Assembly (NCBI GenBank): GCA_937993755.1
Contig: CALKMA010000006.1
Coordinates: 14,130 to 78,129 of the forward strand
Reading direction: 5' to 3'
Source: an uncultured Faecalibacterium sp.
Lineage (GTDB): Bacteria > Bacillota > Clostridia > Oscillospirales > Ruminococcaceae
Length of the DNA stretch: 64,000 nt
Below, in pieces: positions 3,125-23,021 of the stretch. The position numbers and the translations under genes are program-made. The notes beneath the pieces are model-generated. The model was given only the letters and a program-made list of their open reading frames with translations, did no database searches and was not told the DNA's origin. The stretch's first letter is position 1. Each line of letters starts with the position of its first letter.

Positions 3125-3229
3125 AAATCAGGAGCCGCCGTCTGCGACGGCGCGCAGGCAGCCCTTTCGGCGCGGCGCGGATAAACCCCGCAAGAGAAGG
3201 GGCAGGCAAGGCAAGCAGCCGAAGGAGCG

Positions 3230-3925
3230 CTTGGCCGTTATCGCACGGAGCATGGGTGGAAAAGGCTTGATAGGCGCCGCCCCACGCCGAGCGCGCGGCT
3301 GTGCCTGTAAAAACCGGAAGCCCCTGTTCTGACTTGGGAAAGACAAAAGCATGAAGAAAGCGCGCGGCGGAAATAGCCGCTGCCGCTTTTTGCGGGGGCT
3401 GTTCCCGCTGCTCCATGGGCCGCTTGGCCGGTCATCGCGCGGAGCATGGGCGGAAAAGGCTTGATAGGCGCTGCCCTGCGCCGAGCGCGCGGCCTTGAAT
3501 ATAGAAGCCGAAAGCTCCTGCTCTGACTTGGGAAAGACAAAAGCATGAAGAAAGCGCGCGGCGGAAATAGCCGCTGCCGCTTTTTGCGGGGGCTGATCCC
3601 GCTGCTCCATGGGCCGCTTGGCCGTTATCGCACGGAGCATGGGCGAAAAAGGCTTGATAGGCGCTGCCCCGCGCCGAGCGCGCGGCCTTGCATATAAAAG
3701 CCGGAAGCGCCTGTTCTGACTTGGGAAAGACAAAAGCATGAAGAAAGCGCGCGGCGGAAATAGCCGCTGCCGCTTTTTGCGGGGGCTGTTCCCGCTGCTC
3801 CATGGGCCGCTTGGCCGGTCATCGCGCGGGAGCATGGGCGGAAAAGGCTTGATAGGCGCCGCCCTGCGTTGAACAGACAGGCTTGACTATAAAAAGCTGG
3901 GAGCTTCCATTCTGGCTTGGGAAGG
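3230..3925. repeat. tandem direct repeat, ~194-bp unit, ~3.6 copies (last copy degenerate)
   Basis: Units begin ttggccg(g/t)t(c/t)atcgc(a/g)cggagcatgggcggaaaaggcttgatagg at 3230, 3424, 3618 and 3813; each carries a cttga(a/c)tata(g/a)aag segment and a GC-stem plus TTTTT element. Confidence 0.85.
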
Positions 3926-4083: not shown

Positions 4084-5250
4084 ATGGTCACTTTACTTGC
4101 CAAATGGATCATCGGTGCGCCGCCCGACAAGACGAGCGAGGAGAGCCGCGCCCGTTACGGCGCGCTGTGCGGCGGTGTCGGCATCGGTCTGAATATCGTT
4201 CTGTTCCTCATCAAGCTGCTGGCCGGCATTTTCAGCGGCTCGCTCGCCATCACGGCCGACGCCCTCAACAACCTGTCGGACGCCGGCTCCTCCCTGATCA
4301 CCGTTATCGGCTTTCGGCTGGCGGCTGCCAAGCCCGATCTGCGGCACCCCTTTGGGCATGGTCGCGTCGAGTATCTCACGGGCCTGTTGGTATCGGCTGT
4401 CATCATTGTTATGGGCGCCGAGCTGGGCATCAGCTCGTTCAAGCGCATCCTCCGACCCGAAGGGCTGGAATTTTCGTGGCTGCTGCTGGGCGTGCTGCTC
4501 TGTTCGGTCGCCGTCAAGCTGTATATGGCGCTCTATAACCGCCGCTACGCGCGGGCGCTCGATTCGCCGGCGCTCTCCGCCGTCGTCTATGACAGCCTCA
4601 GCGACTGCGTTTCCACCGCGGCGGTCGCGCTGAGCCTGCTGGCTTTCCGGCTGCTCGACTGGAACATCGACGCGTACTGCGGCCTGCTGGTGGCGCTGTT
4701 CATCATTTACGGCGGTGTCAAGTCGGCCAAGGACACCGTTGATCCGCTGCTCGGCAGCCCGCCCGACCCCGATTTCTGCCGGAAGGTCGAGCGGCTTGTG
4801 CTGTCGCACCCCGATATCGTCGGCGTCCATGACCTGCTGGTCCACGACTACGGCCCCGGCCGGCGCATGATCTCGCTGCACGCCGAGGTGCCGGCCGACG
4901 GCGATTTCCGCGCCCTGCACGACCTCATCGACAACATTGAGGGCGACCTGCGCCGCGAGCTGCGCTGCAACGCCGTCATACACATGGACCCCGTCGAGAC
5001 GGAAAATGAAGCGGTCATCACCGTGCGCCGCGCCGTAGCCGAGGCCGTCAGGGAGATCGACGCGGGCTGCACCATCCACGACTTCCGCATGGTGACCGGC
5101 CCGACGCACACCAACCTGATTTTTGACCTTGTGCTGCCCTTTGAGGCCGTGATGAGCGATGAGGAGGCGCGCACCCGCGCCGTCGGGCTGGTCGCCCGGC
5201 TCGACCCCACCTATACCGCTGTTGTGACGGTTGACCGGCCCTATGTGTGA
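4084..5250 (+). CDS. cation diffusion facilitator family transporter (CzcD/FieF-like)
   Basis: 388-aa ORF with an N-terminal 6-TM region (…ITADALNNLSDAGSS…HPFGHGRVE…) and a C-terminal cytoplasmic CDF domain; RBS gagagga. Confidence 0.85.
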   Translation: MVTLLAKWIIGAPPDKTSEESRARYGALCGGVGIGLNIVLFLIKLLAGIFSGSLAITADALNNLSDAGSSLITVIGFRLAAAKPDLRHPFGHGRVEYLTGLLVSAVIIVMGAELGISSFKRILRPEGLEFSWLLLGVLLCSVAVKLYMALYNRRYARALDSPALSAVVYDSLSDCVSTAAVALSLLAFRLLDWNIDAYCGLLVALFIIYGGVKSAKDTVDPLLGSPPDPDFCRKVERLVLSHPDIVGVHDLLVHDYGPGRRMISLHAEVPADGDFRALHDLIDNIEGDLRRELRCNAVIHMDPVETENEAVITVRRAVAEAVREIDAGCTIHDFRMVTGPTHTNLIFDLVLPFEAVMSDEEARTRAVGLVARLDPTYTAVVTVDRPYV

Positions 5251-5812
5251 GCGCCGGCCGTATGGCCGCTCCGGCTGCTTGCCGCTTCCGTTCCCGGCCG
5301 GCGGTCTGAACGGAGGCGCGGCGGCCCGCTCCGGTCTGCTGCCGCTCTTTTTGTCCGTAAGGGTCTTTCGCGGCTTCGGTGAAGCTCCGGCCGAAAAGCT
5401 CCATCAGGCGGTCTGTGGGGCTGCCCCCGCTCCGGCTGCGGCGATGCCGTTTGTTTCCCGCTGACCGTCAGGCTGCCGCGCCGTTTCCGGCGGTGTTCAT
5501 TTCCAGCGCCCTGCCGCCCTTATGCCGCGCTCATAAAGTGAACAGGGGCGGCTTCCGCGCGCCGGCGCGCTTCCCTGCGGCAGGGGAAAAATCGCGCTGC
5601 TGCCCGCTGAAGGCTGCCCCGACGCGGGGCGTTCGCAGGGGCTTCTGTATCCCTGGCCGGCGGGCTGCCGCCGGTCAAAATTTTTTTCAAAAAACCGCAA
5701 ACGGTACGTTATGTACGTTCCCGCCGTGCTATCATAACAGTGTCGCAAAGGGCTTTGGAGCTGAGGCTCCGGGGCCTTTTTGTGTGCAGAAAAATGAAAG
5801 GGAGATTATTGA

Positions 5813-6003
5813 TGGCACGAAGAAACCTCAAAAAACGGGTCGGGCGCCGCTCCGACCCCGAAGCGCTGCAAAAACAGCGGTGCCGGCGCTGCGTCTACAA
5901 TGAATACCGGCGCTGCGGCGTGCTGTTCTGCGTTCTGCCGGCCTGCGTGCGGGCGGACATCAGGGAGGCGGACAATGGCGCCGAAAAAGCCGCGGGCCTT
6001 TAA
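5813..6003 (+). CDS. hypothetical small Cys-rich protein upstream of and overlapping terS
   Basis: ATG preceded by a GGGAG RBS; 63 aa, MARRNLKKRVGRRSDP...CRRCVYNEYRRCGVLFC...; no recognisable family. Confidence 0.25.
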
Positions 6004-6247
6004 GGAGGCGTTTGTCCGCCTGCTTGAAGCGCCCATCGACCCGGAGACCGCCGGCAGGCTGGACGAGCAGCTCCGTGAGCTGCCGCCCGGCTTCAAGACG
6101 AGCGAGGCCATCGCCATGGCGCAGATCGGCAAGGCGCTGCGCGGCGATACGGCGGCCGCCAAATATATCGGCGAGCTGATGAGCGAGGAGACGTCCGCCC
6201 CGCCCGAAGTCAGGGTGACGGTGCGGGTGATAGACGATGGAGCTTGA
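5975..6247 (+). CDS. phage terminase small subunit
   Basis: 90-aa MAPKKPRAFKEAFVRLLEAPIDPETAGRLDEQLRELPPGFKTSEAIAMAQIGKAL... has P27-type TerS character; RBS GGGAGG; ends overlapping the terL start. Confidence 0.55.
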   Translation: MAPKKPRAFKEAFVRLLEAPIDPETAGRLDEQLRELPPGFKTSEAIAMAQIGKALRGDTAAAKYIGELMSEETSAPPEVRVTVRVIDDGA

Positions 6248-7529
6248 GCTGTGCGTCACCCCCAAGCAGCGCAGCTTTATCGAGGCCGCCGAGGACGAGG
6301 TGCTGTTCGGCGGCGCGGCCGGCGGGGGCAAGAGCATGGGGCAGATGCTCGACGCGCTGCTCTATGCCCTGCGTTACAGCGGCAGCCGGCAGCTTATCCT
6401 GCGGCGTACGCTGCCCGAACTCGATAAAACGCTGGTGCGCGTGGCGCTGCAGCTCTATCCGAAAAGCCTGTACAGCTACACCGCCTCAAGCCACACCGGC
6501 CTGTTTGCCAACGGCTCGGCGCTGGAATTCGGCTACTGCGATTCGGAGGAGGACGTCCACCGCTATCAGTCGGCGGAATACGACGTGATCCGCTTTGATG
6601 AGCTGACGCATTTCACGGGCTATATGTACCTCTATCTGCTGTCGCGGCTGCGCGGCAGCAACGGTTACCCCAAGCAGGTCAAAAGCACGACCAACCCCGG
6701 CGGACCGGGGCACAGCTTTGTCAGAGAGCGGTTCATCGACCTCGGTGCGCCCATGCAGACGCACCGCACGCCCACCGGCACCCGCCGCTTTATCCCGGCG
6801 CGCGTGACCGACAACAGCTTTCTGATGAAAAAGGACCCCGGCTACGCCACAAGACTGCTCAATCTGCCGGAAAACGAGCGCCGCGCGCTGCTCGACGGCG
6901 CATGGGAGCTGGAGGACGGCCGCTTTTTCCCCGAATTCCGGCGCGAGACGCACGTCCTGCCGAGCGGATGCCCGCCGGCCGGCTGGACGCGGTATGTCAG
7001 CATCGATTACGGCCTTGATATGTTCGCGGCCTGTCTGTTCGCCGTTGACGGCAGCCGCGCGGTGCAGTACCGGGAGGTGTATCAGAGCAGCCTTATCATT
7101 TCAGATGCCGCCCGCCTGCTGCTTTCGGCGCTCGACCGGCCGCCGGCGGCCGTTTTTGCGCCGCCCGATCTGTGGAACCGGCGGCAGGAAACGGGCGTCA
7201 GCGCCGCCGAGATATTCCAGCGCTGCGGCGTGACGCTGACCAGAGCGCCGGCGGCACGCGCTTCGGGCTGGCTGGCGCTCAAGGAGCTGCTCAAGCCGCC
7301 CGGCGACGGCAGCCGGCCGGCACTCTGCTTCACCGAGGACTGCCCCAATACCATCCGCAGTCTGCTTGCCCTGCGGTGCGACTGCCATGACCCCGGCGAC
7401 GCAGCCGGCCGCCCGCACGAGGTCACCCACGCGCCCGACGCGCTGCGCTATTTTGCGGCCTCCCGCCGCGGAGAGCCGCTCATCACACATGACAGCGAGC
7501 TGGACAGCCTGCTGTCCTACGGTATCTGA
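6237..7529 (+). CDS. phage terminase large subunit
   Basis: 430-aa ORF with Walker A (FGGAAGGGKS), ATPase and nuclease regions; directly follows terS. Confidence 0.85.
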   Translation: MELELCVTPKQRSFIEAAEDEVLFGGAAGGGKSMGQMLDALLYALRYSGSRQLILRRTLPELDKTLVRVALQLYPKSLYSYTASSHTGLFANGSALEFGYCDSEEDVHRYQSAEYDVIRFDELTHFTGYMYLYLLSRLRGSNGYPKQVKSTTNPGGPGHSFVRERFIDLGAPMQTHRTPTGTRRFIPARVTDNSFLMKKDPGYATRLLNLPENERRALLDGAWELEDGRFFPEFRRETHVLPSGCPPAGWTRYVSIDYGLDMFAACLFAVDGSRAVQYREVYQSSLIISDAARLLLSALDRPPAAVFAPPDLWNRRQETGVSAAEIFQRCGVTLTRAPAARASGWLALKELLKPPGDGSRPALCFTEDCPNTIRSLLALRCDCHDPGDAAGRPHEVTHAPDALRYFAASRRGEPLITHDSELDSLLSYGI

Positions 7530-7535
7530 AAGGAG

Positions 7536-7730
7536 ATGCATGATATGGAGATCCTGTTTGCTCTTGCCGGCTTCGCCCTTGGCGGATCGGCGGTATTCTG
7601 CTGTATGCTGTACTGGCGGCGGCTGCGCCGTCAGCCGCCGCCCGCCCGTCCCGACCCGGCGGAAAGGCAGCTTCTCAATTTTTTGAATTACAGCGGCAGC
7701 GAGAGGGGGCAGATGCGCCTTGACGACTGA
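7536..7730 (+). CDS. hypothetical small membrane protein (phage)
   Basis: 64-aa ORF with one hydrophobic helix (ILFALAGFALGGSAVFCCMLYW) between terL and portal. Confidence 0.3.
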   Translation: MHDMEILFALAGFALGGSAVFCCMLYWRRLRRQPPPARPDPAERQLLNFLNYSGSERGQMRLDD

Positions 7731-9258
7731 CCGGGCCGAAAGAATATGGCGCGAATATGAGCGCGGCGTGCGCTACAACAGCGCCATCGGGCTCTATGAG
7801 ACGGTGCGCCGGAACGAGGAATTCTATATCGGCGACCAGTGGAACGGGCTGCAGGCCCCCGATCTCGACAAGCCGGTGCTCAACTTTCTCAAGCGCGTCT
7901 GCAGCTATCTTGTCGCCATGCTGGTGAGCGACGATATCGGCGTCAAGCTGACGCCCTTCGACGCGGCACAGCAAAACAGCGCCGTCTGCGCCGCTTTGGA
8001 GCGTGAGGTGCTGCGCGTCATCGAGCGCACCAAAATGCGGGCGCGCGGCCGCGAGATACTGCGCAACTGTGTCGTTGACGGCGACGGCTGCTTTTTCTGG
8101 TATTTCGACCCCGATGCCATCGGCAGCCGCGCGGCGCAGGGCGAGATCGGGCTTGACGTGGTGGAAAACACCCGCATCCTGTTCGGCGACCCCTATGAGG
8201 CGGAGGTGCAGCGGCAGCCCTACCTGCTGATCGTCAAGCGTGAGAGCGTGGCGTCGCTGCGGCGGCGGGCGGCGCTCTACGGTGTGCCGCCGGCGCTTTT
8301 CTGCCCCGACAGCGGCGAGGCCGGCGCGCCGGGCGGCGGGGAGGAGGGCGGCAGCGCCACCGTGCTGCTGCGGATGTACAAGCGGGACGGACGGGTCTTT
8401 TTCTCGGAATCGACCCGTACCGCCATGCTGCGCGAGGAGATCGACAGCCGCTGCACCCTTTATCCCGTGGCCTATATGAGCTATGAGCGGGTGCGCAGCA
8501 GCTATCACGGCCGCGCCGCGGTCACGGGGCTTATCCCGAACCAGATCGCCGTCAACAAGCTGTGGGCCATGGCCATCCGCCACCAGCACATGATGGCCTT
8601 TCCCAAGGTGTTTTACGACCGGCAGAAGATCGGCGAGTGGAGCAACCGCGTGGGCGAGGCCATCGGCGTTGTCGGCAACCCGTCCGAGGCGGTGGCGACC
8701 AGCTTCCGCGCCGGCGATATGTCCGGCCAGCTGCTGACGCTGGTTGACCGCACCATCCAGTACACCAAGGAATTCATGGGGGCCTCCGACGCGGCGCTCG
8801 GCAATATCCGGCCCGACAACGCCAGCGCCATCATTGCCGTCCAGCAGGCGGCGGCCGCGCCGCTGGAGCTTCAGAAGCTGGCCTACTTCCAGTTCGTCGA
8901 GGATTCGGTGCGCGTCATCATCGACCTTATCCGCGCCAGCTACGGCCGCCGTGAGGTGGTGCTGGACGGCCGCCGGCAGACGGTCGATTTTTCGTCGCTC
9001 GGCATTGACGCCATGTCGGTGCAGGTCGATGTCGGCGTGTCGCCCTACTGGTCGGAGCTGATGCAGGTGCAGACGCTCGACAATATGTTCGCCAAGGGCA
9101 TTGTGACCGACGCCATCGCCTATCTGGAGAGCGTGCCCGACCATCTCATCCCCGGCAAGAGCCGGCTGCTCGAAAGCCTGCGCCGGAGAAAGGAGGAGCA
9201 GGATGAAATGCAGCGTATGCCGGCTGGAGATGCGGATACGGGCCGTGACCCGGCGTGA
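7720..9258 (+). CDS. phage portal protein
   Basis: 512-aa ORF immediately after terminase, of typical portal size and acidic C-terminus; the start is probably TTG at 7720 after a GAGGGGG RBS. Confidence 0.65.
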   Translation: MTTDRAERIWREYERGVRYNSAIGLYETVRRNEEFYIGDQWNGLQAPDLDKPVLNFLKRVCSYLVAMLVSDDIGVKLTPFDAAQQNSAVCAALEREVLRVIERTKMRARGREILRNCVVDGDGCFFWYFDPDAIGSRAAQGEIGLDVVENTRILFGDPYEAEVQRQPYLLIVKRESVASLRRRAALYGVPPALFCPDSGEAGAPGGGEEGGSATVLLRMYKRDGRVFFSESTRTAMLREEIDSRCTLYPVAYMSYERVRSSYHGRAAVTGLIPNQIAVNKLWAMAIRHQHMMAFPKVFYDRQKIGEWSNRVGEAIGVVGNPSEAVATSFRAGDMSGQLLTLVDRTIQYTKEFMGASDAALGNIRPDNASAIIAVQQAAAAPLELQKLAYFQFVEDSVRVIIDLIRASYGRREVVLDGRRQTVDFSSLGIDAMSVQVDVGVSPYWSELMQVQTLDNMFAKGIVTDAIAYLESVPDHLIPGKSRLLESLRRRKEEQDEMQRMPAGDADTGRDPA

Positions 9259-9555
9259 CGGCGCCCGCATAGAGCAGCACAGCTGCTGCAACCCGCAGTG
9301 CCCGCAGCGCGGCAAACCGGTGACGGTCAGCCGGCCGGACGGGCAGAGCGATGGCCGGCAGGCCGCAGCGCCGCGGACGTGAGGAACCGGCGCCGCCGGA
9401 GCGGTCCGGCGGGAATGTCCCGCGGGTTTCGCCCGCCGCGCATCTGAGCCGCCGCCCGGCCCGCGGGTGCCTTTGACAGCCTCCCGACGGGAGGAAGAAG
9501 CCGATCGGCAGCCGGAAACGGCATGACGATAGAATTTTACAACAGGAGGATATCT

Positions 9556-9858
9556 ATGGAAAACAATCAGATGCCGGCCGAGCGCTTTGCGCTTGAGATC
9601 GGCGGAAAACAGCTGGAGCTGACGCGGGAGCAGCTTCTCTGCGCCGCAAGGCTGGGCCTTCTCGCCTATCAGCGCGAGAAGGAAAGCAGGGGGCCTGAGC
9701 AGAGCCTTGCGCGCCTGACCGAGCTGGAAAAGCGCATCGACGCGCTTGAAACCAACTATGCCAACCGCGGCAGCAGCATGGGCAGCGCCCGCACCGGCGC
9801 CGCCGACAGCGAGATGGCCGAGCTTGAGGCCATTTACGATGCCGTATTCCGCCGCTGA
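9556..9858 (+). CDS. putative scaffolding-like protein (phage)
   Basis: ATG after an AGGAGG RBS; ~100 aa, predicted helical or coiled-coil (…LARLTELEKRIDALETNY…); canonical position between portal and capsid. Confidence 0.35.
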   Translation: MENNQMPAERFALEIGGKQLELTREQLLCAARLGLLAYQREKESRGPEQSLARLTELEKRIDALETNYANRGSSMGSARTGAADSEMAELEAIYDAVFRR

Positions 9859-9873
9859 GAAAAGGGAGGAGCC

Positions 9874-10926
9874 ATGGTCAACACATTCACAGGATTTCAG
9901 AAGAAGGTCGAGGAAAGCTTTCACCGCGAGAGCCTCATCGCCGGCCGCTTCTCGCCCGACTACACCTTTTCGGGTGTAAAGACCGTCAAGGTCATCACGC
10001 CGACCACCGTCGCCATGACCGACTATACCCGAAGCGGCGCCAACCGCTACGGAACGCCCACCGAGCTGCAGGACACCGTGCAGGAGCTGACGCTGACGCA
10101 GGACAAGGGCTTTTCGCTCACCATCGATAAGGGCAACAACCTGGATCAGGGCGGCGTCAAGAGCGCCGTCAGTATGCTGGGGCTTCAGATCAACGAGCGC
10201 GCCATCCCCGAATACGACACCTATTGCTTTGCCAGACTGGCCGAAAAGGCAGGCACGATCGTCGGCAACGCCGCGGCGCTCAGCAAAGCCAGCATCTGCG
10301 AGCGCATTTCGGCGGGCACCGAGGCCATGGACGACGCCGAGGTGCCGCAGACGGGGCGCACGCTTTTTATATCGGCCAAGGCCTATAAGCTGCTGAGGCT
10401 TTCGAACGAATTTCTCGGCTGCGAGGCGCTGGCGCACCGTGCCCTTGCCAGGGGACAGGTCGGCGAGTATGACAATATGCCGGTCGTCAAGGTGCCGGGC
10501 GGCCGCTGGCCCGCCCATGTCAACTTTATCATCGCCTACAAGTACGCGGCCGCCGCGCCCGTCAAGATCAGCGAGACGCGCTTTCACATCGACCCGCCGG
10601 GCATTTCCGGCAACCTGCTGGAGGGCCGCCAGTATTACGATCTGTTCGTTTTCGGCGCCAAGTGCAGCGGCGTCTATGTCGAGGTCGATACCGGCACCGG
10701 CGGCGGCACCGTCGCGGCCGCGCCGGCCATTTCCGACGCGGGCGCTCTCACCTGCGCCACGGCGGGCGCCAGCATCCGCTTCACGACTGACGGCAGCGAT
10801 CCGCGCTACAGCTCCACCGCCCGCGTCGGCACGGCAAGCGACGTCACGGCCGCCAACACCGTCGTGCGGGCTTACGCTTACAAGGACGGCTGCTATCCCT
10901 CCGGCGTCACGCAGAAGACGCTGTAA
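9874..10926 (+). CDS. phage major capsid protein with C-terminal Ig/FN3-like extension
   Basis: 350-aa ORF after a GGGAGG RBS; of MCP size and position; C-terminus TCATAGASIRFTTDGSDPRYS resembles a chitobiase/Ig-like decoration domain. Confidence 0.6.
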   Translation: MVNTFTGFQKKVEESFHRESLIAGRFSPDYTFSGVKTVKVITPTTVAMTDYTRSGANRYGTPTELQDTVQELTLTQDKGFSLTIDKGNNLDQGGVKSAVSMLGLQINERAIPEYDTYCFARLAEKAGTIVGNAAALSKASICERISAGTEAMDDAEVPQTGRTLFISAKAYKLLRLSNEFLGCEALAHRALARGQVGEYDNMPVVKVPGGRWPAHVNFIIAYKYAAAAPVKISETRFHIDPPGISGNLLEGRQYYDLFVFGAKCSGVYVEVDTGTGGGTVAAAPAISDAGALTCATAGASIRFTTDGSDPRYSSTARVGTASDVTAANTVVRAYAYKDGCYPSGVTQKTL

Positions 10927-10986
10927 CACCAGAAATACAGCCGCTTTCCCGCCGGCCGGCGGGAAAGCGGCGCAGGGAGGACATGT

Positions 10987-11367
10987 ATGACAGGACAAAA
11001 GCTTTATGAAAATGCTCTGGCGGTGCTGGCCGTTCCGCCGCTTGACGCCGGCGATTACAGCCGGTCGGCCGTGACCGATATCAATATCGTGACAGCCGAG
11101 CTGTTCGAGGCCAACAACACCGTCCGCATGGCGCGCGGCCGTCAGCCGCTGGCCGAGCCGCCGGTCATCGCCCATCTGGAGGATGAGGTCGGTCTGGAGC
11201 CTTATGTTATTTTTAAGGCCGGACTGTACGGCGTCGCCTCGCGCATGGTGGCCGACGATGACCTTCAGCGCGCCGTCTATTACCACAATCTCTATGTCGC
11301 CGGCATCGCCGACTGCTGCCGAGCTGTGGCCGGCGGCGTGATCGACGTCTATCGGAGCGGCTTTTGA
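10987..11367 (+). CDS. hypothetical phage protein (possible head-tail adaptor)
   Basis: 126-aa ORF inferred from position only. Confidence 0.35.
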   Translation: MTGQKLYENALAVLAVPPLDAGDYSRSAVTDINIVTAELFEANNTVRMARGRQPLAEPPVIAHLEDEVGLEPYVIFKAGLYGVASRMVADDDLQRAVYYHNLYVAGIADCCRAVAGGVIDVYRSGF

Positions 11368-13211
11368 GGCGCGTGGCGGCCGCGCCGGCCGGTCATGCAC
11401 ACAAAATGGCCGTCGTCGAGTGCTTCAAGGGGGTCGATCTGACCTCGGCGCCCTCCGGCGTGTCGCTTGACCGCTCGCCCGACGCGCCCAATATGGTGCG
11501 CGACGTGCCGGGGCGCGTGCGCAAGCGCATGGGTTATCATCTGGTGCGGCAGTATCCCGCCCGCGTCAACGGCATCCATCGGTTCAACGGCCGGGCCGGC
11601 GTCAAGGAGCTGATCCATGCCGGCATGGCGCTCTATGACGGCGCGGCGCAGCTGGCGGCCGGTCTGGCCGACTGCCGCTCGCAGGCCTTTCAGCTGGAGG
11701 GCCGGCTGTTCATCGCGGACGGCAAACGGCTGCTGGCCTATGACGGCAGCAGCGTCAGGCCGGCGGCACAGGGGGCCTACTGCCCATTGCTGACTGTCTC
11801 CCGTGCGCCCGATGGCGGCGGCACCGACTACCAGCCCCTCAATCTGCTGACCGGCCGCTTCCGCGAGCGCTTTCTGGCCGACGGCGTCAGCAGGGTCTAT
11901 CAGCTGTCACTGTCGGAGCTGACCTCGGCGGGTGCTGTCGTCCGCATCCGGTCGGGCGAGGTGTGGGCCGAGCTTGCCGGCGGCTTCACGGTCAACGCGG
12001 CCGACGGCACGGTCACCTTTGACACGGCGCCGGCTGAGAGCGACTGCGAGGGGGCAGACGATGTCGAAATAGAGGCCGAAAAAACCGTGGCCGGCTATGC
12101 CGACCGCATCGACCGCTGCACGGTGGGCACCGTGTTCGGCGTTGACGGCAGTCAGGACCGCCTGTTTCTGTCAGGCAATCCCGACTGCCCCAATCTCGAT
12201 TTCCATTCCGAGCTGGGACAGCCCGATTACTTTCCCGACACCGGCTACGGCCGGCTGGGGCAGGACAGCTGCGCCGTGGCCGGCTATCTGACGTTGGGCA
12301 GCCGCCTGCTGGCCTTCAAGAGCCGCGACGACGACGGGCGCACCATCATTATCAGAAGCGGCCGGCTGATCGACGGCCGGGCCGAGTTCCCCATCGAGAA
12401 CCTGCTGCTGGCGCCGGGCGCCGTTTCGCCCCATGCCTTCGCGCCGGCCGGCGAGCCGCTGTTCCTGACAGCGGGCGGGGTCTATGCCGTCACGTCGGAG
12501 GATGTGACGGGCGACCGCGTCACCCGGAACCGCAGCTATTATATCAATGCCGCATTGCAGCGGGAGGAGCTGTCGGAGGCGGCTGCGGCGGTGTATAAGG
12601 ACTTCTATATCATCGCGGCCGGCGGCAGGCTGTATCTGCTCGACCTGCTGGCCAAGGATTACCGCCGCGACCAGCCCTATTCGGCGCACCAGTACGAGTG
12701 CTATCACTTCGACCATATCGGTGCGCGTGTGCTGACAGCCGGTGATACGCTGCGCTTTGGTACGGCGGACGGCCGTCTGTGTGAATTTTATACCGACCCG
12801 TCCGACCCGGCCAGCTACAACGACTGCGGCGCACCCATCGCCTGCCGCTGGACGACGCCCGAATTTTCCGGCAGCTCCTTTTTCAAAAACAAGGATCTGC
12901 TGCGCTATTATCTGCGCGTCATGCCGCAGCCGACCACATCGGTCAGCGTATCGGCCAAGCGCCGCGGCGCTTGGTATCTTCTCAAAAAGGACATCAGCGT
13001 CTGCCGCTATCTTTGCTTCAGCGCGCTGCGCTTTTCGGCGTTCACCTTCTGCTGCGACAGCGACCCGCAGGTGGTGGGCGGCCGGATGCGCATCAAAAAG
13101 GTGCCCTGCGGCGCGCTGCGGTTTGAAAACAGCGGCGGAAATGAGCCGTTCGCCCTGCTGGGCTTCGGCTTTGAATTCAGAGAAACAGGAGGGATCAAGC
13201 AATGGCACTGA
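11364..13211 (+). CDS. phage structural protein (putative tail/nozzle protein)
   Basis: 615-aa ORF overlapping the previous stop (TTG start after GGAGC; alternative ATG at 11406); there is no tape-measure-like gene in the cluster. Confidence 0.45.
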   Translation: MRRVAAAPAGHAHKMAVVECFKGVDLTSAPSGVSLDRSPDAPNMVRDVPGRVRKRMGYHLVRQYPARVNGIHRFNGRAGVKELIHAGMALYDGAAQLAAGLADCRSQAFQLEGRLFIADGKRLLAYDGSSVRPAAQGAYCPLLTVSRAPDGGGTDYQPLNLLTGRFRERFLADGVSRVYQLSLSELTSAGAVVRIRSGEVWAELAGGFTVNAADGTVTFDTAPAESDCEGADDVEIEAEKTVAGYADRIDRCTVGTVFGVDGSQDRLFLSGNPDCPNLDFHSELGQPDYFPDTGYGRLGQDSCAVAGYLTLGSRLLAFKSRDDDGRTIIIRSGRLIDGRAEFPIENLLLAPGAVSPHAFAPAGEPLFLTAGGVYAVTSEDVTGDRVTRNRSYYINAALQREELSEAAAAVYKDFYIIAAGGRLYLLDLLAKDYRRDQPYSAHQYECYHFDHIGARVLTAGDTLRFGTADGRLCEFYTDPSDPASYNDCGAPIACRWTTPEFSGSSFFKNKDLLRYYLRVMPQPTTSVSVSAKRRGAWYLLKKDISVCRYLCFSALRFSAFTFCCDSDPQVVGGRMRIKKVPCGALRFENSGGNEPFALLGFGFEFRETGGIKQWH

Positions 13212-13783
13212 GCACCATCACTACGGCCGCGCTGGCCGATAAGGGCGTGCGCGGCCTGCCCGATGTGCCGGGGCTGGCCAGCGGCGTCATGCAGCGGAGA
13301 TTCGACGAGCTGACGCTCGACGTTGTTGTGCCGGCCTTCAACGGCCTTGTGAGCGAGCTGGCCGCGGCCGACGGCGCACAGGCCGTCGGCTGCGGCGGGA
13401 CGACGGTGGCCGGGGCGCTGGCAGACCTGAACGCCGGCCTTGCCGCCAAGGCCGACGCCGGCGCCGTGCTGCTGACCGACGGCAGCACCGCCTTTACGCC
13501 GCGCAATGACAACGACCCCGTCAACAAGAAATATGTTGACGATGCCATGCTCGCCGCCGGTGCCGGCGATATGTGCCGGTCTGTCTATGATGCCGACAAT
13601 GACGGCGTTGTTGACAAGGCCGCGGCGCTGACCGGCACGCTGCCCATAGCGGGCGGCGGCACCGGAGCTGACACCGCCGCGGCGGCGCGCGGCAATCTCG
13701 GCGTGCTGGCAATGGCGGTTGTTGAGAGCCTGCCGGAAACGCCGGCGGCCGGCACTGTTTATTTCGTTTACGGGGGAGCCTGA
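13202..13783 (+). CDS. phage tail fibre protein
   Basis: 193-aa ORF with the tail-fibre signature LPIAGGGTGADTAAAARGNLG; Gly/Ala-rich. Confidence 0.6.
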   Translation: MALSTITTAALADKGVRGLPDVPGLASGVMQRRFDELTLDVVVPAFNGLVSELAAADGAQAVGCGGTTVAGALADLNAGLAAKADAGAVLLTDGSTAFTPRNDNDPVNKKYVDDAMLAAGAGDMCRSVYDADNDGVVDKAAALTGTLPIAGGGTGADTAAAARGNLGVLAMAVVESLPETPAAGTVYFVYGGA

Positions 13784-14599
13784 ATGAAACTGGCCAATAT
13801 CTATGCCGCCGATACCGCCGGCACACTGCACGGACAGGCGGCCGCGGGCACGAGCGACGGCAGCGCCCTCAATGTGCGCGTCTGTGATGCCGGCGGCGTG
13901 ATGCACGACATCCGGCGCATCATCGTGACCGATCGGGCGGGCGCGGCCGCCGCCCTTTCCAGCCGGCTGCTTGCCGCCGAGCAGGAGGATTACCGCTATG
14001 TCCGCGGGCCGCTGAGCTGCCCGGCCGGCAACTGTTTCAACAACTACTCGGAATCGGACGCGGTCGAATGGCGCGTGTCGCTCGAATGCATGATCGAGAC
14101 GGCCGCCCAGACGCTGCTGGCCAGCAGCCGCCCCGGCAGCGGCTACGGGTGGGATGTCACGGCCGATGCAAAGGGACGGGTTGTGCTGAAAAGCTCCTAT
14201 AACAGCAAGACGACGGTCACGACGTGGGAAACGGCGCTCACGCCCGGCGTCTGGCACACCGTCGCGCTCTACGGCTTTATCAACAAGGCAAGCGATGTCT
14301 GGCTTTCGGTCGATGGCGGAGCGGCCGTCAAAAAGGCGGCCGGCTATAAAAGCTATACCGGCACCGCGCGGGCACTGATCATCGGTGACAGCCACCTGCT
14401 GCTGCGCGGATCGGTCATCGTCAAGGGCATCGACTGGTCGAGCCTGACGGCCCAGCGCACCCTTTCGGTGAACATTGAAAGCGCCCCGGCGGGGCAGGCG
14501 CTTTCCCTTTCGGGCGGGGGCTACACGCTGACGGGCGGGACGGTCGAGCAGCACCGCAGGACGGTATACAGCTGGGAGCCGACCGGCCCGGTGTCATAG
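13784..14599 (+). CDS. phage tail-associated protein (possible receptor-binding / lectin-like)
   Basis: 271-aa ORF whose start abuts the tail fibre stop; beta-rich with a LamG-like flavour. Confidence 0.4.
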   Translation: MKLANIYAADTAGTLHGQAAAGTSDGSALNVRVCDAGGVMHDIRRIIVTDRAGAAAALSSRLLAAEQEDYRYVRGPLSCPAGNCFNNYSESDAVEWRVSLECMIETAAQTLLASSRPGSGYGWDVTADAKGRVVLKSSYNSKTTVTTWETALTPGVWHTVALYGFINKASDVWLSVDGGAAVKKAAGYKSYTGTARALIIGDSHLLLRGSVIVKGIDWSSLTAQRTLSVNIESAPAGQALSLSGGGYTLTGGTVEQHRRTVYSWEPTGPVS

Positions 14600-14870
14600 G
14601 GCGGCGGGGATTGGAAGAACACGGGCTCTGCCGCCGCAAGGCAGGGGCGGGGGACGGAGGAAAGGCTTTTTTCTGCCGCCGCACGGTATGGCTCCGCCTG
14701 CCCTCGCCGGTCTTGACGGGGCGCGCCGGGGCAAAGCGTGTATGCGGCCCTGCGCCTGTCGGCCCGCCGTGCCCCTGCGGACAGCCGGACAAGGGGGCGC
14801 CTATCTTGAAAAATGCCCGCCGGACGGCGGGCAGGAAGGGACAAATGTATTGAAACGGGGAGGTGAAAAT

Positions 14871-15176
14871 TTGACGATCCTTGAAAAGCTGGCGGCGGTG
14901 TCCGGCAGCCTTTCGGCTGTGCTGACGCTGCTGTTGCTGCTGATTCGGCCGCTGCGTGAAAAGCTGCTCGGCTTCAAATGCATCCGCGACGGGCAGAAAT
15001 GTCTGCTGCGCGCCGATATGCTGGCAACCTACTACCGCCGCTGCGACGCGCGGGCCATCCGGCAGCACGAGCTGGAAAACTTTATTTACGAATACAGCGC
15101 CTATAAGGCGCTGGGCGGCAATTCCTTTATCGACAAGATCAATCAGGAGGTCAGGAGCTGGAGGGTTTTATCCTGA
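14871..15176 (+). CDS. putative holin-like / lysis-associated membrane protein
   Basis: TTG start 5 nt after a GGGGAGGTG RBS; N-terminal TM helix (AAVSGSLSAVLTLLLLLIRPL) followed by a charged tail; upstream of holin and lysin. Confidence 0.3.
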   Translation: MTILEKLAAVSGSLSAVLTLLLLLIRPLREKLLGFKCIRDGQKCLLRADMLATYYRRCDARAIRQHELENFIYEYSAYKALGGNSFIDKINQEVRSWRVLS

Positions 15177-15372
15177 AGGCCCGCGGCTGACGCCCGGCTC
15201 AGGGGAACCGATCTTCTTTGAAGCGCCTTGCGGCTCAAAGAGAGCGATCGGAGATTGCTCCTGCTGTCCGGCGGCTATCGCGTCACGGACCTCCCAAGGC
15301 CCGCCGAACAACAAGTGAAAGAAGCAGACACACTTAAAACCGTCTGCAAAGCTTAGTATACGAGGAGAGCTT

Positions 15373-15774
15373 ATGCTGCAAAAAATCATCTGTTATCTGC
15401 CCTGTCTGGGGCTGGCGGCCGGCACCAATATCCTGCTCGGCACCTATCAAAGCGTCGGTAAGCTGCGCGAGGCCTTCAGCTGGCGGCTGCTGCTGACGGG
15501 CATCCTCAAGGCAGCCATCGTGTCGGAGGGCTTTGTTGCCCTTGCCCTCATTCTTGACAAGCTGAACGGCGCCTGCGATCTCGGCGCCTTCGCCGTCATG
15601 CCCGACGCGCTGCTGCTCGGCGTTATCGCCGTTTACTTCGGCAAATGCGCCGGCCATCTGAAGGATATCTTCGCCGTGACCGACCGGCAGCTGTCCGACG
15701 CCGGCCTGCCCGCCTATCAACCGCAGGCCGAGCCGGCCGCCCACGAGCTGCCGGAGGAGGGAGGCGAGGGCTGA
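15373..15774 (+). CDS. phage holin
   Basis: 133-aa ORF with a GAGGAGAG RBS, several hydrophobic helices and an acidic C-terminus; its stop overlaps the lysin ATG (TGATG). Confidence 0.5.
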   Translation: MLQKIICYLPCLGLAAGTNILLGTYQSVGKLREAFSWRLLLTGILKAAIVSEGFVALALILDKLNGACDLGAFAVMPDALLLGVIAVYFGKCAGHLKDIFAVTDRQLSDAGLPAYQPQAEPAAHELPEEGGEG

Positions 15775-16562
15775 TGCCGGTGCTGACCTTTCCCAAGGCA
15801 TTTGTCTATATCAGCCGCCCCTACAGCGCCGCTCACCCGGCCATCGACCTCGGCTGGGGCGCGACGGTGGGCGGCGCAACGGCACCGCTGCTGTCGCCCG
15901 GTGACGGCAGGGTCGCCGCCGTTGCCGACGGCTGCGGCTGGGACCGCGCCAGGGGCTGGGGCAACTATATCCGCATCGACCACGGAGACGGCTTTGAAAC
16001 GCTGCTGGCGCACTGTCTGCGCGGCTCGTTCACCGTGAAAAAGGGCGACAGCGTCAGCCGCGGACAGGCCGTTTGCCGCATGGGCAATTCCGGCAACTGC
16101 TTCACGGCAAACGACTATCACTGCCACTATGTGGTGCTGCGCGGCGGCCGCCAGGTCGATCCGCTGCTCTATACCCGTCTCGACGAGTCGTTCCAGACGG
16201 TCTATGACAAAACCGACAGCGCCTACACCATTGCGCGGCTGGCCGCGAACGATGCCGCCCGCTGCCGTGTCGAGCGCGACGCCGCCCGGCAGCAGCTGGA
16301 GGTCTATGCCGACCGGCTGCGCCTGCGGGCCGCGCCGGGGCTGGCGGGCGAGATCCTCGGCTATGTCCCAACCGGCTTTTACGATGTTGACAGCGTTTTT
16401 GAACAGGATGGCTACCGCTGGTGCCGCATCGGCGGCGAGCTGTACGCGGCTGTCTGCGAGGGCTACAGCCGCCTTCATGCCCCCGCCAGCCGTGAGCGGC
16501 AGCTGGAGGATATCCTGTCCCGCATCGCGGCGCTGGCCGCCGCGGCAAAGGAGGCAAAATGA
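15774..16562 (+). CDS. peptidase M23 (LytM) family endolysin with C-terminal SH3-like domain
   Basis: 263-aa protein with M23 motifs (HPAIDLG…GWGNYIRIDHGDGFETLLAHC) and a C-terminal region (…DGYRWCRIGG…) resembling SH3b. Confidence 0.8.
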   Translation: MPVLTFPKAFVYISRPYSAAHPAIDLGWGATVGGATAPLLSPGDGRVAAVADGCGWDRARGWGNYIRIDHGDGFETLLAHCLRGSFTVKKGDSVSRGQAVCRMGNSGNCFTANDYHCHYVVLRGGRQVDPLLYTRLDESFQTVYDKTDSAYTIARLAANDAARCRVERDAARQQLEVYADRLRLRAAPGLAGEILGYVPTGFYDVDSVFEQDGYRWCRIGGELYAAVCEGYSRLHAPASRERQLEDILSRIAALAAAAKEAK

Positions 16563-17116
16563 GCTATACAGACGTACTTTCGGCCCGTCTGCGCCGCCAG
16601 CAGCGCCAGCAGCTCGATACAAAGTATCAGGCTGACCTCGATAAACAGGCGCGTGAACGGGCCGAGGCCGAGGAGGACTTCCGCGGCGGCACCCGTTCGC
16701 TCTATGTGGAGGCAATGGAAAAGCTCCGCGACCTGCCGCAGCAGCTGGCGGCGGCGGGGCTGTGGGGCGGATCCGGCGAGGAGCGCGGGCAGGCCATCCG
16801 CCGCGACTATATCAGCGCTCTGCGCGAGCTGGAAAAGGCGTGGGATCGCAAAAGACAGAGCCTTGACGACACGGAGCTGCGCACGCGCACCCGCTGGCGC
16901 GAGGAGGTCGAGGAATGGAGGCTGAAGGACGCCATCGCCGCGAAGCGGGCGGCAGCGGGCGGGCGCACCGCGCGCAGCGGCGGCAAAGCAGGCGGGCAAG
17001 GGACCGCGGCCGGCCGGTCCGACGGGCAGCCGGCTGACCCGTCGGACCTGTTCACCGACCCGGAGGAGATTTACGCTTATCTCACGATGACGCAGAACAG
17101 GCAGTTCATCCGCTGA
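16559..17116 (+). CDS. hypothetical phage protein, charged / coiled-coil
   Basis: 185-aa ORF overlapping the lysin stop; Arg/Glu/Gln-rich. Confidence 0.35.
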   Translation: MSYTDVLSARLRRQQRQQLDTKYQADLDKQARERAEAEEDFRGGTRSLYVEAMEKLRDLPQQLAAAGLWGGSGEERGQAIRRDYISALRELEKAWDRKRQSLDDTELRTRTRWREEVEEWRLKDAIAAKRAAAGGRTARSGGKAGGQGTAAGRSDGQPADPSDLFTDPEEIYAYLTMTQNRQFIR

Positions 17117-17377
17117 CGGCGGCGGAGCAAAGAAAACACGCGGCGTGCGGCGAAAGCAAAGCGGATGGCTTTTGCCGCCGGACGCGGCAGGGAAAACACC
17201 CTCGCGCCGGAGAGGCATTTCCTCGGCTGAAGGCGCGGGAGACGGGGCGCCGATGCGGAAAATGCCGCTGCCGCCTGTGCGGTCCCGCTCCGGCAGCCCG
17301 CTCTATCCTGCCCCCGGCGAACGCAGAGAGGCTTACGTTACGGTTTTGCGCCGAGCGGGGCAGGGGAGAGCAGGAAG

Positions 17378-17415
17378 CAGCGCCCCGACAGGCATGCCTG
17401 TCGGGGCGCTTTTTT
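17378..17415 (+). terminator. rho-independent terminator at right end of phage-like cluster
   Basis: Hairpin gccccgacagg-catgc-ctgtcggggc followed by TTTTTTGTGTG. Confidence 0.75.
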
Positions 17416-17471: not shown

Positions 17472-18263
17472 CTATCTACCCTTCCCCTCGCGGCCGTTGA
17501 AATCGCCCAGAAAGGCGCTGTCGAGCGGGGCGTTGCACCGAACCGACAGGAAATAGCTGTCGATCAGGAACACGGCGGTGGGCACGGCATCCTCCAGCAT
17601 TTGCGCATAGCGCTCGACGGCGGCGCGGCAGGCCGGGTCGGCTTTCTTTTTCAGGATGATGCCGCGTGTCGGCCGGACGATGTTGACAACACCGGCCAGC
17701 GGGCTGCCGCCCAGCGAGCCGAGCAGCTGATGTGTCTGACGGATGCCGCGCCAGCCGGCGCGAAGCTGCTGACGGGTGCAGGGATAGATGCAGCGCATCA
17801 GTGTAAAGAGCCTGTCGTTCGGCTCGATGTCGGCCAGCGGACGCAGGGTCAGAGGGTCAAGGCCGTTCTGCTCGGCCAGATAGCGGTCAAGCTCCGTCTC
17901 CAGACCCAGATGGGAGATGCGGGCCTTGGCCGCCTCGCTGTCAACGGTGGGATGCAGCGCGTGGTCGCTCACATAATGGCAGATAAGCCCGGCGGCGTAG
18001 GCGGCGGCGTAGGGCGTCCCGTTATAGACCAGCGGGCGCAGCGGCTCCAGCAGGCCGCTGACGGGACTGGCATGAAGGCGGCTACCGACCTTGGCCACCG
18101 ACCCGACGAATACGGGCGGGTGGAAGAAAAGCAGGTCGGGCCCCAGCGAGCCGACGAGATATTCATCCAGCTGCTCGGTAAAGAGGCGGCGGTTGGGACA
18201 GTCCAACCGATCAAGCACCTTTTTGGCAAACAGGATATGTGCATATACGGATGGCATAGACAA
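17472..18263 (-). CDS. zinc-dependent phospholipase C family protein
   Basis: 263-aa ORF MSMPSVYAHILFAKKV… with His-rich segments (ICHYVSDHALHP) typical of the short bacterial Zn-PLC-like family. Confidence 0.45.
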   Translation of the reverse strand: MSMPSVYAHILFAKKVLDRLDCPNRRLFTEQLDEYLVGSLGPDLLFFHPPVFVGSVAKVGSRLHASPVSGLLEPLRPLVYNGTPYAAAYAAGLICHYVSDHALHPTVDSEAAKARISHLGLETELDRYLAEQNGLDPLTLRPLADIEPNDRLFTLMRCIYPCTRQQLRAGWRGIRQTHQLLGSLGGSPLAGVVNIVRPTRGIILKKKADPACRAAVERYAQMLEDAVPTAVFLIDSYFLSVRCNAPLDSAFLGDFNGREGKGR

Positions 18264-19539: not shown

Positions 19540-19691
19540 GGATGCTCCTTGATGGTATGCCGGCAGGCAGAAATGCGGTGGGGGGAAGGGCGGGATGCGC
19601 CGAGCGCGGGTCGGATGAACGCACAGCAGGCTCGGCTCACGCGCCCCGCAAGGGAAGACACGGGCCGGACAGGCACACAGCCAACTCAGAC

Positions 19692-22592: not shown

Positions 22593-22992
22593 GGCGGGGA
22601 AGAAAAGGGGGGACGCGACAGGCTTTCAAAGCTAAACTGCCCAATTATCAAATGGCCTTGTGTCTGGTCTTGAGCAAAACCGAGCGACTTTTCCTATGGA
22701 AAGCCGCTCAAGCCTGCTATTCAATGCAAGAGCACAGGAGTTATGGCGTGTTCGGATGGTACGCAGTCTTATCCGATGTCCTATTTTATGTGGGGCACGG
22801 TTCGAAACGTGTACCTTATATAGCAGACCATGTTTACATATTTAAAAGAATTTTGCATCGGCTACGGCTGTTTATATTGTGCTTGAATGTCATAGCTTTG
22901 CAGCCAAACAAAACAGAAAGCACTTATGTTTTTGCTTTATTATGATTTTTTGCAAAATCACCAAGAAATTTTTGAAAAAGTACAGAAAAAGA

Positions 22993-23021
22993 TTGACAAC
23001 AAACAACTTTGATGCTATTAT
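22993..23021 (+). promoter_or_regulatory. candidate sigma70 promoter of the PTS island operon
   Basis: TTGACA-17 nt-TATTAT in an AT-rich gene-free stretch ~215 nt upstream of the IIC gene. Confidence 0.4.

Follow-up and report, generated by a model that had tools for sequence, protein, structure and literature searches.

What kind of element is a complete run of phage head, tail and lysis genes that sits in a bacterial chromosome with no integration, repression or replication genes beside it? The question is raised by a locus of an uncultured Faecalibacterium sp. (GenBank assembly GCA_937993755.1, contig CALKMA010000006.1, positions 14,130 to 78,129 of the forward strand), which was analysed as one stretch of 64,000 nucleotides, hereafter the window. 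An earlier note on this DNA had read, within ~11.5 kb of a single strand, the usual order of phage morphogenesis genes, and had taken them for a domesticated particle producer, either gene transfer agent (GTA)-like or podovirus-derived, or for a heavily reduced defective prophage. The open reading frames (ORFs) of this series are where the note had put them and, in the profile search that it had called for, match Pfam and PHROG families in the expected order. They form a particle and lysis operon at window positions 5812-17116 on the plus strand (11.3 kb, ~16 ORFs, all of plus-strand orientation), in which the stop and start codons of neighbouring ORFs often overlap or abut, and separate gene calls on identical strain contigs reproduce the same ORF set. 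We propose that the cluster is probably a host-domesticated, podovirus-derived operon for particle production, a GTA-like "viriform" that has been inherited vertically in a lineage of Oscillospiraceae.

The first part of the answer is what the locus does not contain. When every ORF was scanned with Pfam and PHROG, neither the cluster nor its syntenic flanks yielded an integrase, repressor or replication gene, and the cluster ORFs yielded no tape-measure gene, as the earlier note had said; tail-tube genes are likewise missing from the cluster. Its suggestion of a search for attachment sites was also followed: no att-like repeats join the two borders (direct and inverted repeats, 2500-23000), and BLAST against the window revealed no repeats shared among intergenic segments. 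A tblastn search with all ORFs of 12 related loci detected no further phage genes in the window outside 5.7-17.3 kb, and the genes sampled in the rest of its 64 kb are metabolic. With integrase, att sites, repressor and replication module all absent in or next to the cluster, the judgement that this is not a functional temperate phage holds. The textbook late-operon gene order and a size of 10-12 kb, like that of capsid-forming satellites, might still suggest a small active phage, temperate or virulent, or a satellite resembling the capsid-forming phage-inducible chromosomal islands (cf-PICIs), whose other genes were displaced by misassembly. However, identical junctions occur in more than 40 independently assembled contigs of up to 509 kb (ENA, ERZ28759269) from different studies; int, alpA and pri-rep are missing from the cluster; the cluster has tail and lysis genes, which cf-PICIs lack; and the 64 kb window holds no other phage homologues. 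This explanation is thus largely refuted, and we regard it as extremely improbable.

The second part concerns residence in the chromosome. Public assemblies, most of them from human gut metagenomes, contain the exact sequence of the major capsid protein (MCP) in 88 blocks, and 23 of the contigs were read. Metagenome-assembled genomes of the species include GCA_902492335.1 and GCA_964316785.1. Wherever a contig reaches the locus the cluster is there, in 23 of 23 contigs read via the MCP and 23 of 23 read via the neighbouring CDF transporter gene, and no empty site was seen among the strain contigs read through either protein; the clean site that the earlier note had associated with an ordinary decaying prophage did not appear. 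Strain copies of the cluster are 99.7-100% identical, and their alleles differ by 41 synonymous and 27 non-synonymous changes, giving the same pN/pS (0.22) as the flanking host genes (20 synonymous, 13 non-synonymous; 0.22). The G+C content at third codon positions (GC3) of cluster genes, 0.73-0.86, is that of the flanks, as is overall GC. A compositional sign of recent acquisition was considered and rejected because both values equal those of the flanks.

Comparison with a diverged relative extends this picture. Related loci and contigs are designated here by L numbers, and in L020, whose tail nozzle is 53% identical to that of the window, the gene order is the same from the portal to the homologue of the last gene, g185. 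Its M23 lysin and g185 homologue lie directly beside genes for a zinc-dependent phospholipase C (Zn-PLC), methionine gamma-lyase (MetGL), a GNAT-like protein and MurD, in the same orientation as in the window, where these four constitute the right flank that the note had called housekeeping genes. Amino-acid identity between the two is 36-78% for cluster proteins and 43-70% for the four flank proteins, with dN of 0.16-0.77 and 0.24-0.57, respectively, and all ~15 cluster ORFs are intact in both despite saturation of dS. Three further short contigs (L021, L022 and L106) belong to the same sub-clade. Since the site is shared, divergence is matched to that of the flank, the ORFs are intact and GC3 is host-like, the cluster has undergone a long co-divergence with the chromosome and is not a recent insertion. 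The note had described it as inserted after the rplQ operon: the left flank is indeed ribosomal, but a CDF gene intervenes (rplQ, 194-bp tandem repeats, CDF transporter, cluster), and the acquisition is ancient. These comparisons indicate that the cluster is resident in the chromosome and vertically inherited, and that its structural genes are kept by purifying selection at the level of the host flank, with the caveat of the disrupted contigs described below. Of the readings offered in the earlier note, they favour the domesticated element, which it had tied to a comparison of related genomes.

The same data bear on the possibility that the cluster is a functionless podovirus prophage remnant, which has lost its early region, its integrase and the end that encodes a giant protein, and of which the remainder is slowly decaying. 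Related full prophages do exist in the same bacterial family, the integrase, repressor and replication genes are absent, and three of the 20 strain contigs have a frameshift or nonsense change in the gene for portal, nozzle or MCP. Slow decay is, however, difficult to reconcile with ~15 ORFs that all remain intact in lineages whose synonymous sites are saturated, with a pN/pS no different from that of the housekeeping flank, with occupancy of the same site in a diverged host, with a GC3 wholly ameliorated to the host level, or with the maintenance throughout the clade, split loci included, of a non-coding promoter and leader terminator (see below). We therefore consider a decaying remnant quite unlikely.

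Sister loci carry the argument for domestication beyond the species. Neighbour-joining trees of three proteins (MCP, portal and TerL) unite the integrase-less elements in one group that excludes the full phages, and every integrase-less member whose flanks extend far enough lies within host DNA. The L026 copy, compact at 11.7 kb, has genes for a PASTA-domain protein and TraX on one side and for DUF6530 and RuvC/A/B on the other, and L069 ends at YhfC and amidohydrolase genes. In L030, L043 and L028 an opposite-strand block of host genes (PepF of the M3 family and a 2-oxoacid_dh-like gene) stands directly upstream of the scaffold and MCP genes, with the portal on the far side of that block in L030 and L043. 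In L025 the block from scaffold to g185 lies between a xanthine-dehydrogenase-type gene and a histidine kinase gene, with no lysis genes adjacent. All integrase-less elements have a g185-like gene last and lack the giant gene. Because such loci are split by host genes they cannot be a packaged phage genome, and the pattern is that of GTAs. At the level of sequence the element in the window is GTA-like: it is resident and vertically inherited, lacks mobility and lysogeny genes and is under purifying selection.

The ancestry of the particle is revealed most clearly by its tail. The 615-aa product, which the earlier note had called a tail protein, can now be described more precisely. An AlphaFold model from a 20-sequence alignment is a confident all-beta structure (pLDDT 87.9, pTM 0.84), and in a Foldseek search of the PDB its top matches were exclusively podovirus nozzle or tail-hub proteins (E 1e-19 to 1e-12), including those of Pa223, P22 (gp10), Sf6, T7 (gp12), SU10 and cyanopodophages. 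Sequence comparison also relates it to gp15 of the Bacillus megaterium podophage Page (26% identity across 97% of the protein). On the strength of the model this protein is a podovirus nozzle/hub. The order of portal, small protein, nozzle and fibre, taken together with the nozzle fold, thus points to a short tail of the T7/P22 design, and the gene content is of podovirus type, with the nozzle recognized by fold, portal and fibre by profile, and neither tape measure nor tail tube. Based on the nozzle fold, the P22-type portal and the homology to Page gp15, the cluster derives from a podovirus. The nozzle family is very large: a search that started from a single member gave at least 1,844 clusters at 90% identity. 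It is found at 164 loci in GTDB species representatives, where it is combined with several head modules; in that scan the window's own species was absent from the matches, and the best match was 46% identical.

The remaining tail and lysis genes were assigned with varying confidence. The motif that the note had singled out in the fibre lies in the region matched by tail-fibre PHROGs, and the N-terminal half of this protein is ~50% conserved among relatives while its C terminus varies. The following 271-aa protein (g271) is, from its position, probably a distal fibre or receptor-binding protein; its description as lectin-like depends solely on a sub-threshold match to Laminin_G (E 0.014). Where the note had counted one or two holins, the 133-aa protein is a good candidate, having three predicted transmembrane (TM) segments and abutting the lysin gene, and it is 46% identical to the product of the same-position gene in L020; the 101-aa protein has a single N-terminal TM segment. 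The M23/SH3 lysin is as described and also matches endolysin and peptidase PHROGs. The protein encoded last, g185, belongs to a family that always comes last in integrase-less clusters and, in full phages, directly before a giant protein with a MuF_C domain, and is therefore a candidate internal or ejection protein of the virion. A Pfam match of g185 to T7_gp14 fell below the cut-off (E 0.011) and was left as a hint, and its family profile found nothing relevant among PDB sequences.

The head and packaging genes follow the same design. The translation of TerL contains Walker A (GGAAGGGKS) and Walker B (IRFDE) motifs. The 90-aa protein encoded immediately before it matches phrog_2412 (E 3e-5), a family whose PHROG function is unknown, and aligns with 88-106-aa proteins of the clade, whereas the TerS of full phages, including the GP3_package type, is 119-172 aa long. 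The name of small terminase given in the note thus comes down to position and to homology with short proteins that precede TerL in relatives. The first gene of the operon, g63, is specific to the clade (47-48% identity to the first gene of L018 and L026) and has no Pfam or PHROG match. The scaffold-like protein gives tblastn matches of 28-50% to 102-222-aa proteins at the same position in relatives; in full phages this position is occupied by proteins of 240-339 aa. Homologues of the MCP number more than 1,000, most of them with 59-66% identity and a length of 348-355 aa, and the Ig-like extension noted earlier is a C-terminal domain at residues 291-349 (PF13290, PF13287; CHB_HEX_C/Fn3_assoc). 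No cluster protein has an NCBIfam match, nor do homologues named "N4-gp56 family MCP" by NCBI. For the 126-aa protein encoded between MCP and nozzle, a profile search against PDB sequences was empty, comparison with an SU10_adaptor protein gave only a weak C-terminal motif match (hhalign probability 32%), and a single-sequence AlphaFold2 model was unreliable (pLDDT 54) and was not used.

Full phages that possess a window-type head module (L104, L105, L031, L117-L119, L121 and L122) illustrate what the cluster has lost. They carry early or replication genes upstream of the late genes, and after the lysis genes they encode a g185-like protein followed by a giant protein of 1,500-2,200 aa. The giant protein contains a MuF_C domain (E 2e-13, residues 687-768), is otherwise unannotated and has no PHROG match; it was located at 6827-13423 in L121, 10835-17380 in L122, from 18221 in L104 and from 19187 in L105, and also in L014-L016. 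MuF_C domains mark capsid-internal proteins that are ejected, and the giant protein is probably a polymorphic protein of this kind. It is missing from the window cluster. The shorter scaffold (100 vs 240-339 aa) and TerS (90 vs 119-172 aa), together with the loss of the MuF_C giant, are reductions typical of GTAs, and the first two hint at a capsid of reduced size and, indirectly, at the packaging of DNA pieces smaller than the cluster. Two unannotated "Bacteriophage sp." scaffolds from human faeces in Mexico, L001 and L002 (MT836833.1 and MT836592.1; 10.8 and 9.6 kb), encode nozzles of the same family (43% and 30% identical) beside a different type of head module, and may be fragments of full phages or compact clusters.

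How such an operon might be controlled is suggested by its leader. Upstream of g63 lies a promoter-like element whose direct repeat, GTACG-N4-GTACG, reads GTACGTTATGTACG at 5704-5717, followed by a hairpin with a U-run and, 3′ of this, by a ribosome-binding site and the g63 ATG at 5812. The RNA fold of 5738-5800 has a free energy of -27.1 kcal/mol (z = -3.8), and none of 200 shuffled sequences was as stable. In L106, L026 and L018 the region before the first packaging gene aligns with the element without gaps, and so does the region before the scaffold-MCP block in L032, L030 and L025, which are split or partial loci. The model R1, based on the sequence alone of these six copies and that of the window, had nine matches in 1.77 Mb, all within the integrase-less clade, adding one copy before the scaffold gene of L028 (E 0.0025) and one before the packaging block of L043; it matched none of ~110 further loci, among them every full phage and IMG/VR contig examined. 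Pattern scans for the element gave no match in IMG/VR and found only the same species in JGI metagenomes. Leaders with a hairpin and U-run are also present in L106, L026, L025 and L043, with unrelated stem sequences. At L043 930-1050 the repeat is altered to TGTCG-N4-TGTCG and occurs in two tandem copies, while the TAAAATGATAGTGTGG box and the leader terminator are kept, a change that suggests co-evolution with a cognate DNA-binding regulator. From this arrangement, a dedicated trans-acting activator would bind the direct repeats, and productive expression would require read-through of the leader terminator. Late operons of lambdoid phages employ the same read-through logic.

A dedicated promoter and leader terminator with no regulator in cis, in a bacterial family that is infected by related full podophages, could also mean that an infecting relative turns on the late operon through its own late activator or antiterminator, making the cluster a helper-dependent parasite of phages or a device for abortive infection or decoy defence. 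The promoter element is, however, absent from all full-phage and IMG/VR loci examined. Full phages instead have sigma-70-type TTGACA-N17-TATAAT promoters before their late genes, and because these are ordinary sigma-70 promoters, the regulators of such phages are not expected to recognize the clade element. Furthermore, the cluster can neither excise nor replicate and thus cannot spread as a satellite. Dependence on a helper phage is very unlikely on these grounds.

We favor a mechanism in which the host-domesticated operon is expressed under chromosomal control. A factor encoded elsewhere would act at the promoter, and RNA polymerase would pass the leader terminator (~5749-5785) and the hairpins within the operon to yield a single 11.3 kb transcript. 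The TerS-like protein, TerL, portal, short scaffold and MCP would then build a capsid that is filled by headful packaging, while the adaptor, a hexameric nozzle and fibres would form the short tail and the g185 protein would be incorporated into the particle; the gene identities are as given above and the assembly is deduced from them. Finally, holin and M23 lysin would lyse the producer cell and release the particles. Because excision and replication are precluded and the MuF-domain giant protein is lost, the particles would be expected to carry host DNA instead of a phage genome, and this expectation would match what is known of FpGTA, the GTA of Faecalibacterium. DNA delivery is the weakest step deduced in this scheme, again because the giant internal protein has been lost.

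That loss, which could preclude delivery of DNA, invites a different view of the same particle, namely that it is domesticated but kept for killing or lysis instead of gene transfer, as a PBSX-like or tailocin-like weapon or as a means of programmed lysis that releases public goods. The lysis cassette has been retained, and a PBSX-like role was left open by the authors of the FpGTA study (PMC12946183). Conversely, the packaging machinery (TerS-like protein, TerL and portal) is under purifying selection although neither killing nor lysis alone would need it, and the sister locus L025 keeps head and tail genes without adjacent lysis genes. We consider such a role unlikely.

Several points weigh against interpretation of the cluster as a domesticated, GTA-like operon. 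Particle formation, DNA content and transfer are predictions from the genes. The assignment of the 90-aa protein as a small terminase, much reduced in size, is weak, relying on position and on homology to short pre-TerL proteins, and that of the 126-aa protein as a candidate adaptor is likewise weak and positional. The window encodes no regulator gene of the kind that the promoter would call for. Structural genes carry disruptive mutations in the 3 of 20 strain contigs mentioned above. The dN/dS values between the window and L020 (0.11-0.40 for the cluster, 0.19-0.38 for the flank) are only rough because dS is saturated, and the site shared with the diverged relative is the right junction only, the contigs of L020, L021, L022 and L106 ending before the left flank. 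Last, the likeness to FpGTA considered below is one of gene-content description and protein names only.

Features of the locus are collected in Table 1, among them the strong terminator with which the note had closed the cluster.

Table 1. Features of the cluster and its immediate surroundings, in window coordinates.
Feature	Position	Strand	Remarks
CDF transporter gene	4084-5250		Left neighbour of the cluster
Promoter-like element	5685-5745	+	A/T-rich stretch, direct repeat, 12-nt spacer, TATCAT then AACAGTGTCG
Leader hairpin and U-run	5749-5785	+	Intrinsic-terminator-like; between promoter-like element and g63
g63, 63 aa	5812-6003	+	First gene of operon; basic, Cys-rich; called on all strain contigs
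Putative small terminase (TerS-like), 90 aa	5975-6247	+	Directly upstream of TerL, overlapping it
Large terminase TerL, 430 aa	6237-7529	+	PF03237 E 4e-10; phrog_979 E 5e-47
g61, 61 aa	7545-7730	+	One TM segment; 50% conserved in L021, 35% in L018
Portal, P22-type, 512 aa	7720-9258	+	PF16510 P22_portal; phrog_156 E 3e-21
Scaffold-like protein, 100 aa (111 aa with start at 9523)	9556-9858	+	Between portal and MCP
Major capsid protein, 350 aa	9874-10926	+	phrog_422 E 3e-44
Palindromic GC-rich hairpin	10940-10971	.	Just 3′ of MCP gene; 14-bp stem, 11 GC pairs
Head-to-tail adaptor candidate, 126 aa	10987-11367	+	Between MCP and nozzle; position kept in all relatives
Tail nozzle/hub, 615 aa	11364-13211	+	phrog_3287 E 4e-23 ("virion structural protein")
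Tail fibre, proximal part, 193 aa	13202-13783	+	Tail-fibre PHROGs on residues 128-173, the GGTGADTAAAARGNLG region
g271, 271 aa	13784-14599	+	29-44% identical to fibre-gene neighbour in L020, L021
g101, 101-aa membrane protein	14871-15176	+	One N-terminal TM segment; phrog_4105 E 4e-9, function unknown
Holin-like protein, 133 aa	15373-15774	+	Three TM segments by hydropathy; stop abuts lysin start
Endolysin, 262 aa	15774-16562	+	M23 peptidase (PF01551 E 3e-15) and SH3-like domain (SH3_3 weak, E 7e-4)
g185, 185 aa	16559-17116	+	Conserved last gene; family core AY..(L)PQ.LAA.GL.GG invariant
Intrinsic terminator closing operon	17379-17410	+	14-bp stem, 11 GC pairs, T-run; strong
Zn-PLC gene	17472-18263	-	Convergent right neighbour of the cluster

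The palindromic hairpin 3′ of the MCP gene may serve as an internal terminator or attenuator. No known RNA element was detected by Rfam in 1-24000. GC-rich tandem repeats occupy two intergenic regions near the cluster (3228-3923 and 19684-20253): a 194-bp unit, present in four copies, separates rplQ from the CDF gene, and a 286-bp unit, present in two, separates the MetGL gene from the GNAT-like gene. The two families are unrelated to one another and to the cluster borders, and both give rise to long spurious ORFs on either strand. The flanking genes are spaced differently in different strains, so the repeat copy number must vary. The intergenic DNA 3′ of g185 (17176-17367) is duplicated in several strains, and the distance from g185 to the PLC gene therefore ranges from 356 to ~630 bp; strain L009 has ~200 extra bp between g271 and g101 (about 14680-14763). 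The three disruptive changes are a +C frameshift at 8190 in a C-run of the portal gene (L005), a G10453T nonsense change in the MCP gene (L112) and a +TA frameshift at 12606, in a TATATA context, in the nozzle gene (L110), and may represent assembly errors, non-producer variants or early decay. Among Logan contigs of the window species that contain TerL, portal and MCP, a length of 7135-7181 bp recurs across independent samples, and those of L075 (Faecalibacterium sp. UBA7177), which contain nozzle, fibre, a GH25 lysin and a g185-like gene, measure 6640-6678 bp. Such near-equal lengths imply that assemblies break at the same flanking sequences. Farther to the right, just past murD, GC falls abruptly to 43-55% (22600-30000) over a sugar-utilisation set that includes PTS EIIC-GAT, a DeoR regulator, a phosphotriesterase-family protein and BtpA. 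This region may have been acquired separately, as a metabolic island; the ORFs tested there included no integrase.

The closest known counterpart of the cluster is FpGTA of Faecalibacterium prausnitzii (Borodovich et al., Nat Commun 2026; PMC12946183). Its operon I (10.5 kb; CP030777 2536737-2546346, RCH50844-50853) encodes a short TerS, TerL, portal, a scaffold-position protein, an MCP of the "N4-gp56 family", several unknowns and a "TolA"-annotated protein, and its operon II (5.5 kb; CP030777 2672270-2677176, RCH48793-48801) encodes a "baseplate" protein, fibre, receptor-binding protein, holin and endolysin (PMC12946183). FpGTA forms 40-nm capsids that contain 8.4-8.9 kb of host DNA, with support from proteomics (PMC12946183). 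Like the window cluster it is chromosomal, integrase-less and podovirus-like in gene set, and the two share a host order of gut Clostridia; MCPs that are 63-64% identical to that of the window bear the same source-given "N4-gp56 family" name. An abundant "TolA"-annotated protein is encoded last in operon I, as the A/E/Q-rich g185 is in the window, a possible parallel. The differences are that the operons of FpGTA are ~125 kb apart, whereas the window cluster is one operon of 11.3 kb, and that the particles of FpGTA have been characterised, whereas the element in the window is a set of genes. A homology search seeded with the nozzle of the Faecalibacterium locus L075 listed no named F. prausnitzii protein, and exact-cluster matching of L075 proteins gave neither names nor accessions. 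With its nozzle, fibre, lysin and g185-like genes, L075 appears to resemble operon II as described for FpGTA.

GTA-type packaging is reported to be the commonest form of capsid-mediated DNA mobilisation in the human gut and to be concentrated in Ruminococcaceae and Oscillospiraceae, but FpGTA is the only gene cluster identified for it, and its authors found no homologue outside Faecalibacterium (PMC12946183). In Oscillospiraceae (Onthomonas, with a main read-length peak of ~5.9 kb) and in Gemmiger such packaging was seen and no cluster was found (PMC12946183). A 2026 preprint reported similar candidate clusters of 12-13 kb in mouse-gut Clostridia and left undecided whether they are GTAs or satellites. 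We suggest, tentatively and with less assurance than the domestication of the cluster itself, that the window contains, intact and as a single operon, a member of an ancient GTA lineage of podovirus origin that is vertically inherited across several Oscillospiraceae genera; that its own code of GTACG-N4-GTACG promoter and leader terminator is read by a chromosomal activator/antiterminator that coordinates even the split loci; and that this lineage is the basis of the 4-9 kb host-DNA packaging in gut Oscillospiraceae. If so, podovirus-type GTAs are not confined to one genus but belong to a broad clade of gut Clostridia, and there would be a way to quantify their contribution to gene flow. The locus is a concrete GTA candidate, complete and testable, in a species of Oscillospiraceae that many human gut metagenomes contain, and its sister loci, being host-embedded, split and integrase-less, show the signs expected of long domestication. 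What is new here is the evidence for deep vertical inheritance and the clade-specific promoter and leader-terminator element, which can be used as a signature for further loci and as a handle on the regulator.

Comparison with other systems places the element further. Full podophages and prophages of gut Clostridia (L103-L105, L117-L122) have homologous TerL, portal, MCP (58-63% identity), adaptor-position, nozzle and g185-like proteins in the same order as the window, and the nozzle is shared more distantly with phage Page (Pagevirus). Unlike the cluster, the full podophages, on contigs of 36-38 kb, have early or replication genes, a longer TerS and scaffold, the MuF_C giant protein and sigma-70 promoters. 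RcGTA and CcGTA of Alphaproteobacteria embody the same concept, a vertically inherited, phage-derived structural cluster that lacks replication and integration genes, is kept by purifying selection, is under host control and is released by lysis; their ancestry, however, is unrelated and siphovirus-like, with a tape measure and long tail and with Proteobacteria as hosts, in contrast to the podovirus type of the window. Their regulators, CtrA, GafA and GafYZ, are not expected in the window organism. CcGTA is nevertheless controlled by transcriptional activation and anti-termination (PMC11150451), and the promoter and leader terminator in the window suggest a like logic. PBSX of Bacillus subtilis is a Gram-positive precedent for a defective phage that produces particles, packages 13 kb of host DNA and lyses its producer, but it is a myovirus-like killer particle of ~28 kb that, unlike the window cluster, keeps its repressor Xre and the late sigma-like factor Xpf in cis. 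The cf-PICIs resemble the cluster in being compact (10-15 kb) and in encoding TerS, TerL, portal, scaffold and MCP; they have int, alpA, pri-rep and att sites and no tail or lysis genes, employing the tails of helper phages, and the window cluster is the reverse. It is thus not a new kind of system, and would be best described as a new and unusually complete single-operon, podovirus-type, GTA-like element of gut Clostridia.

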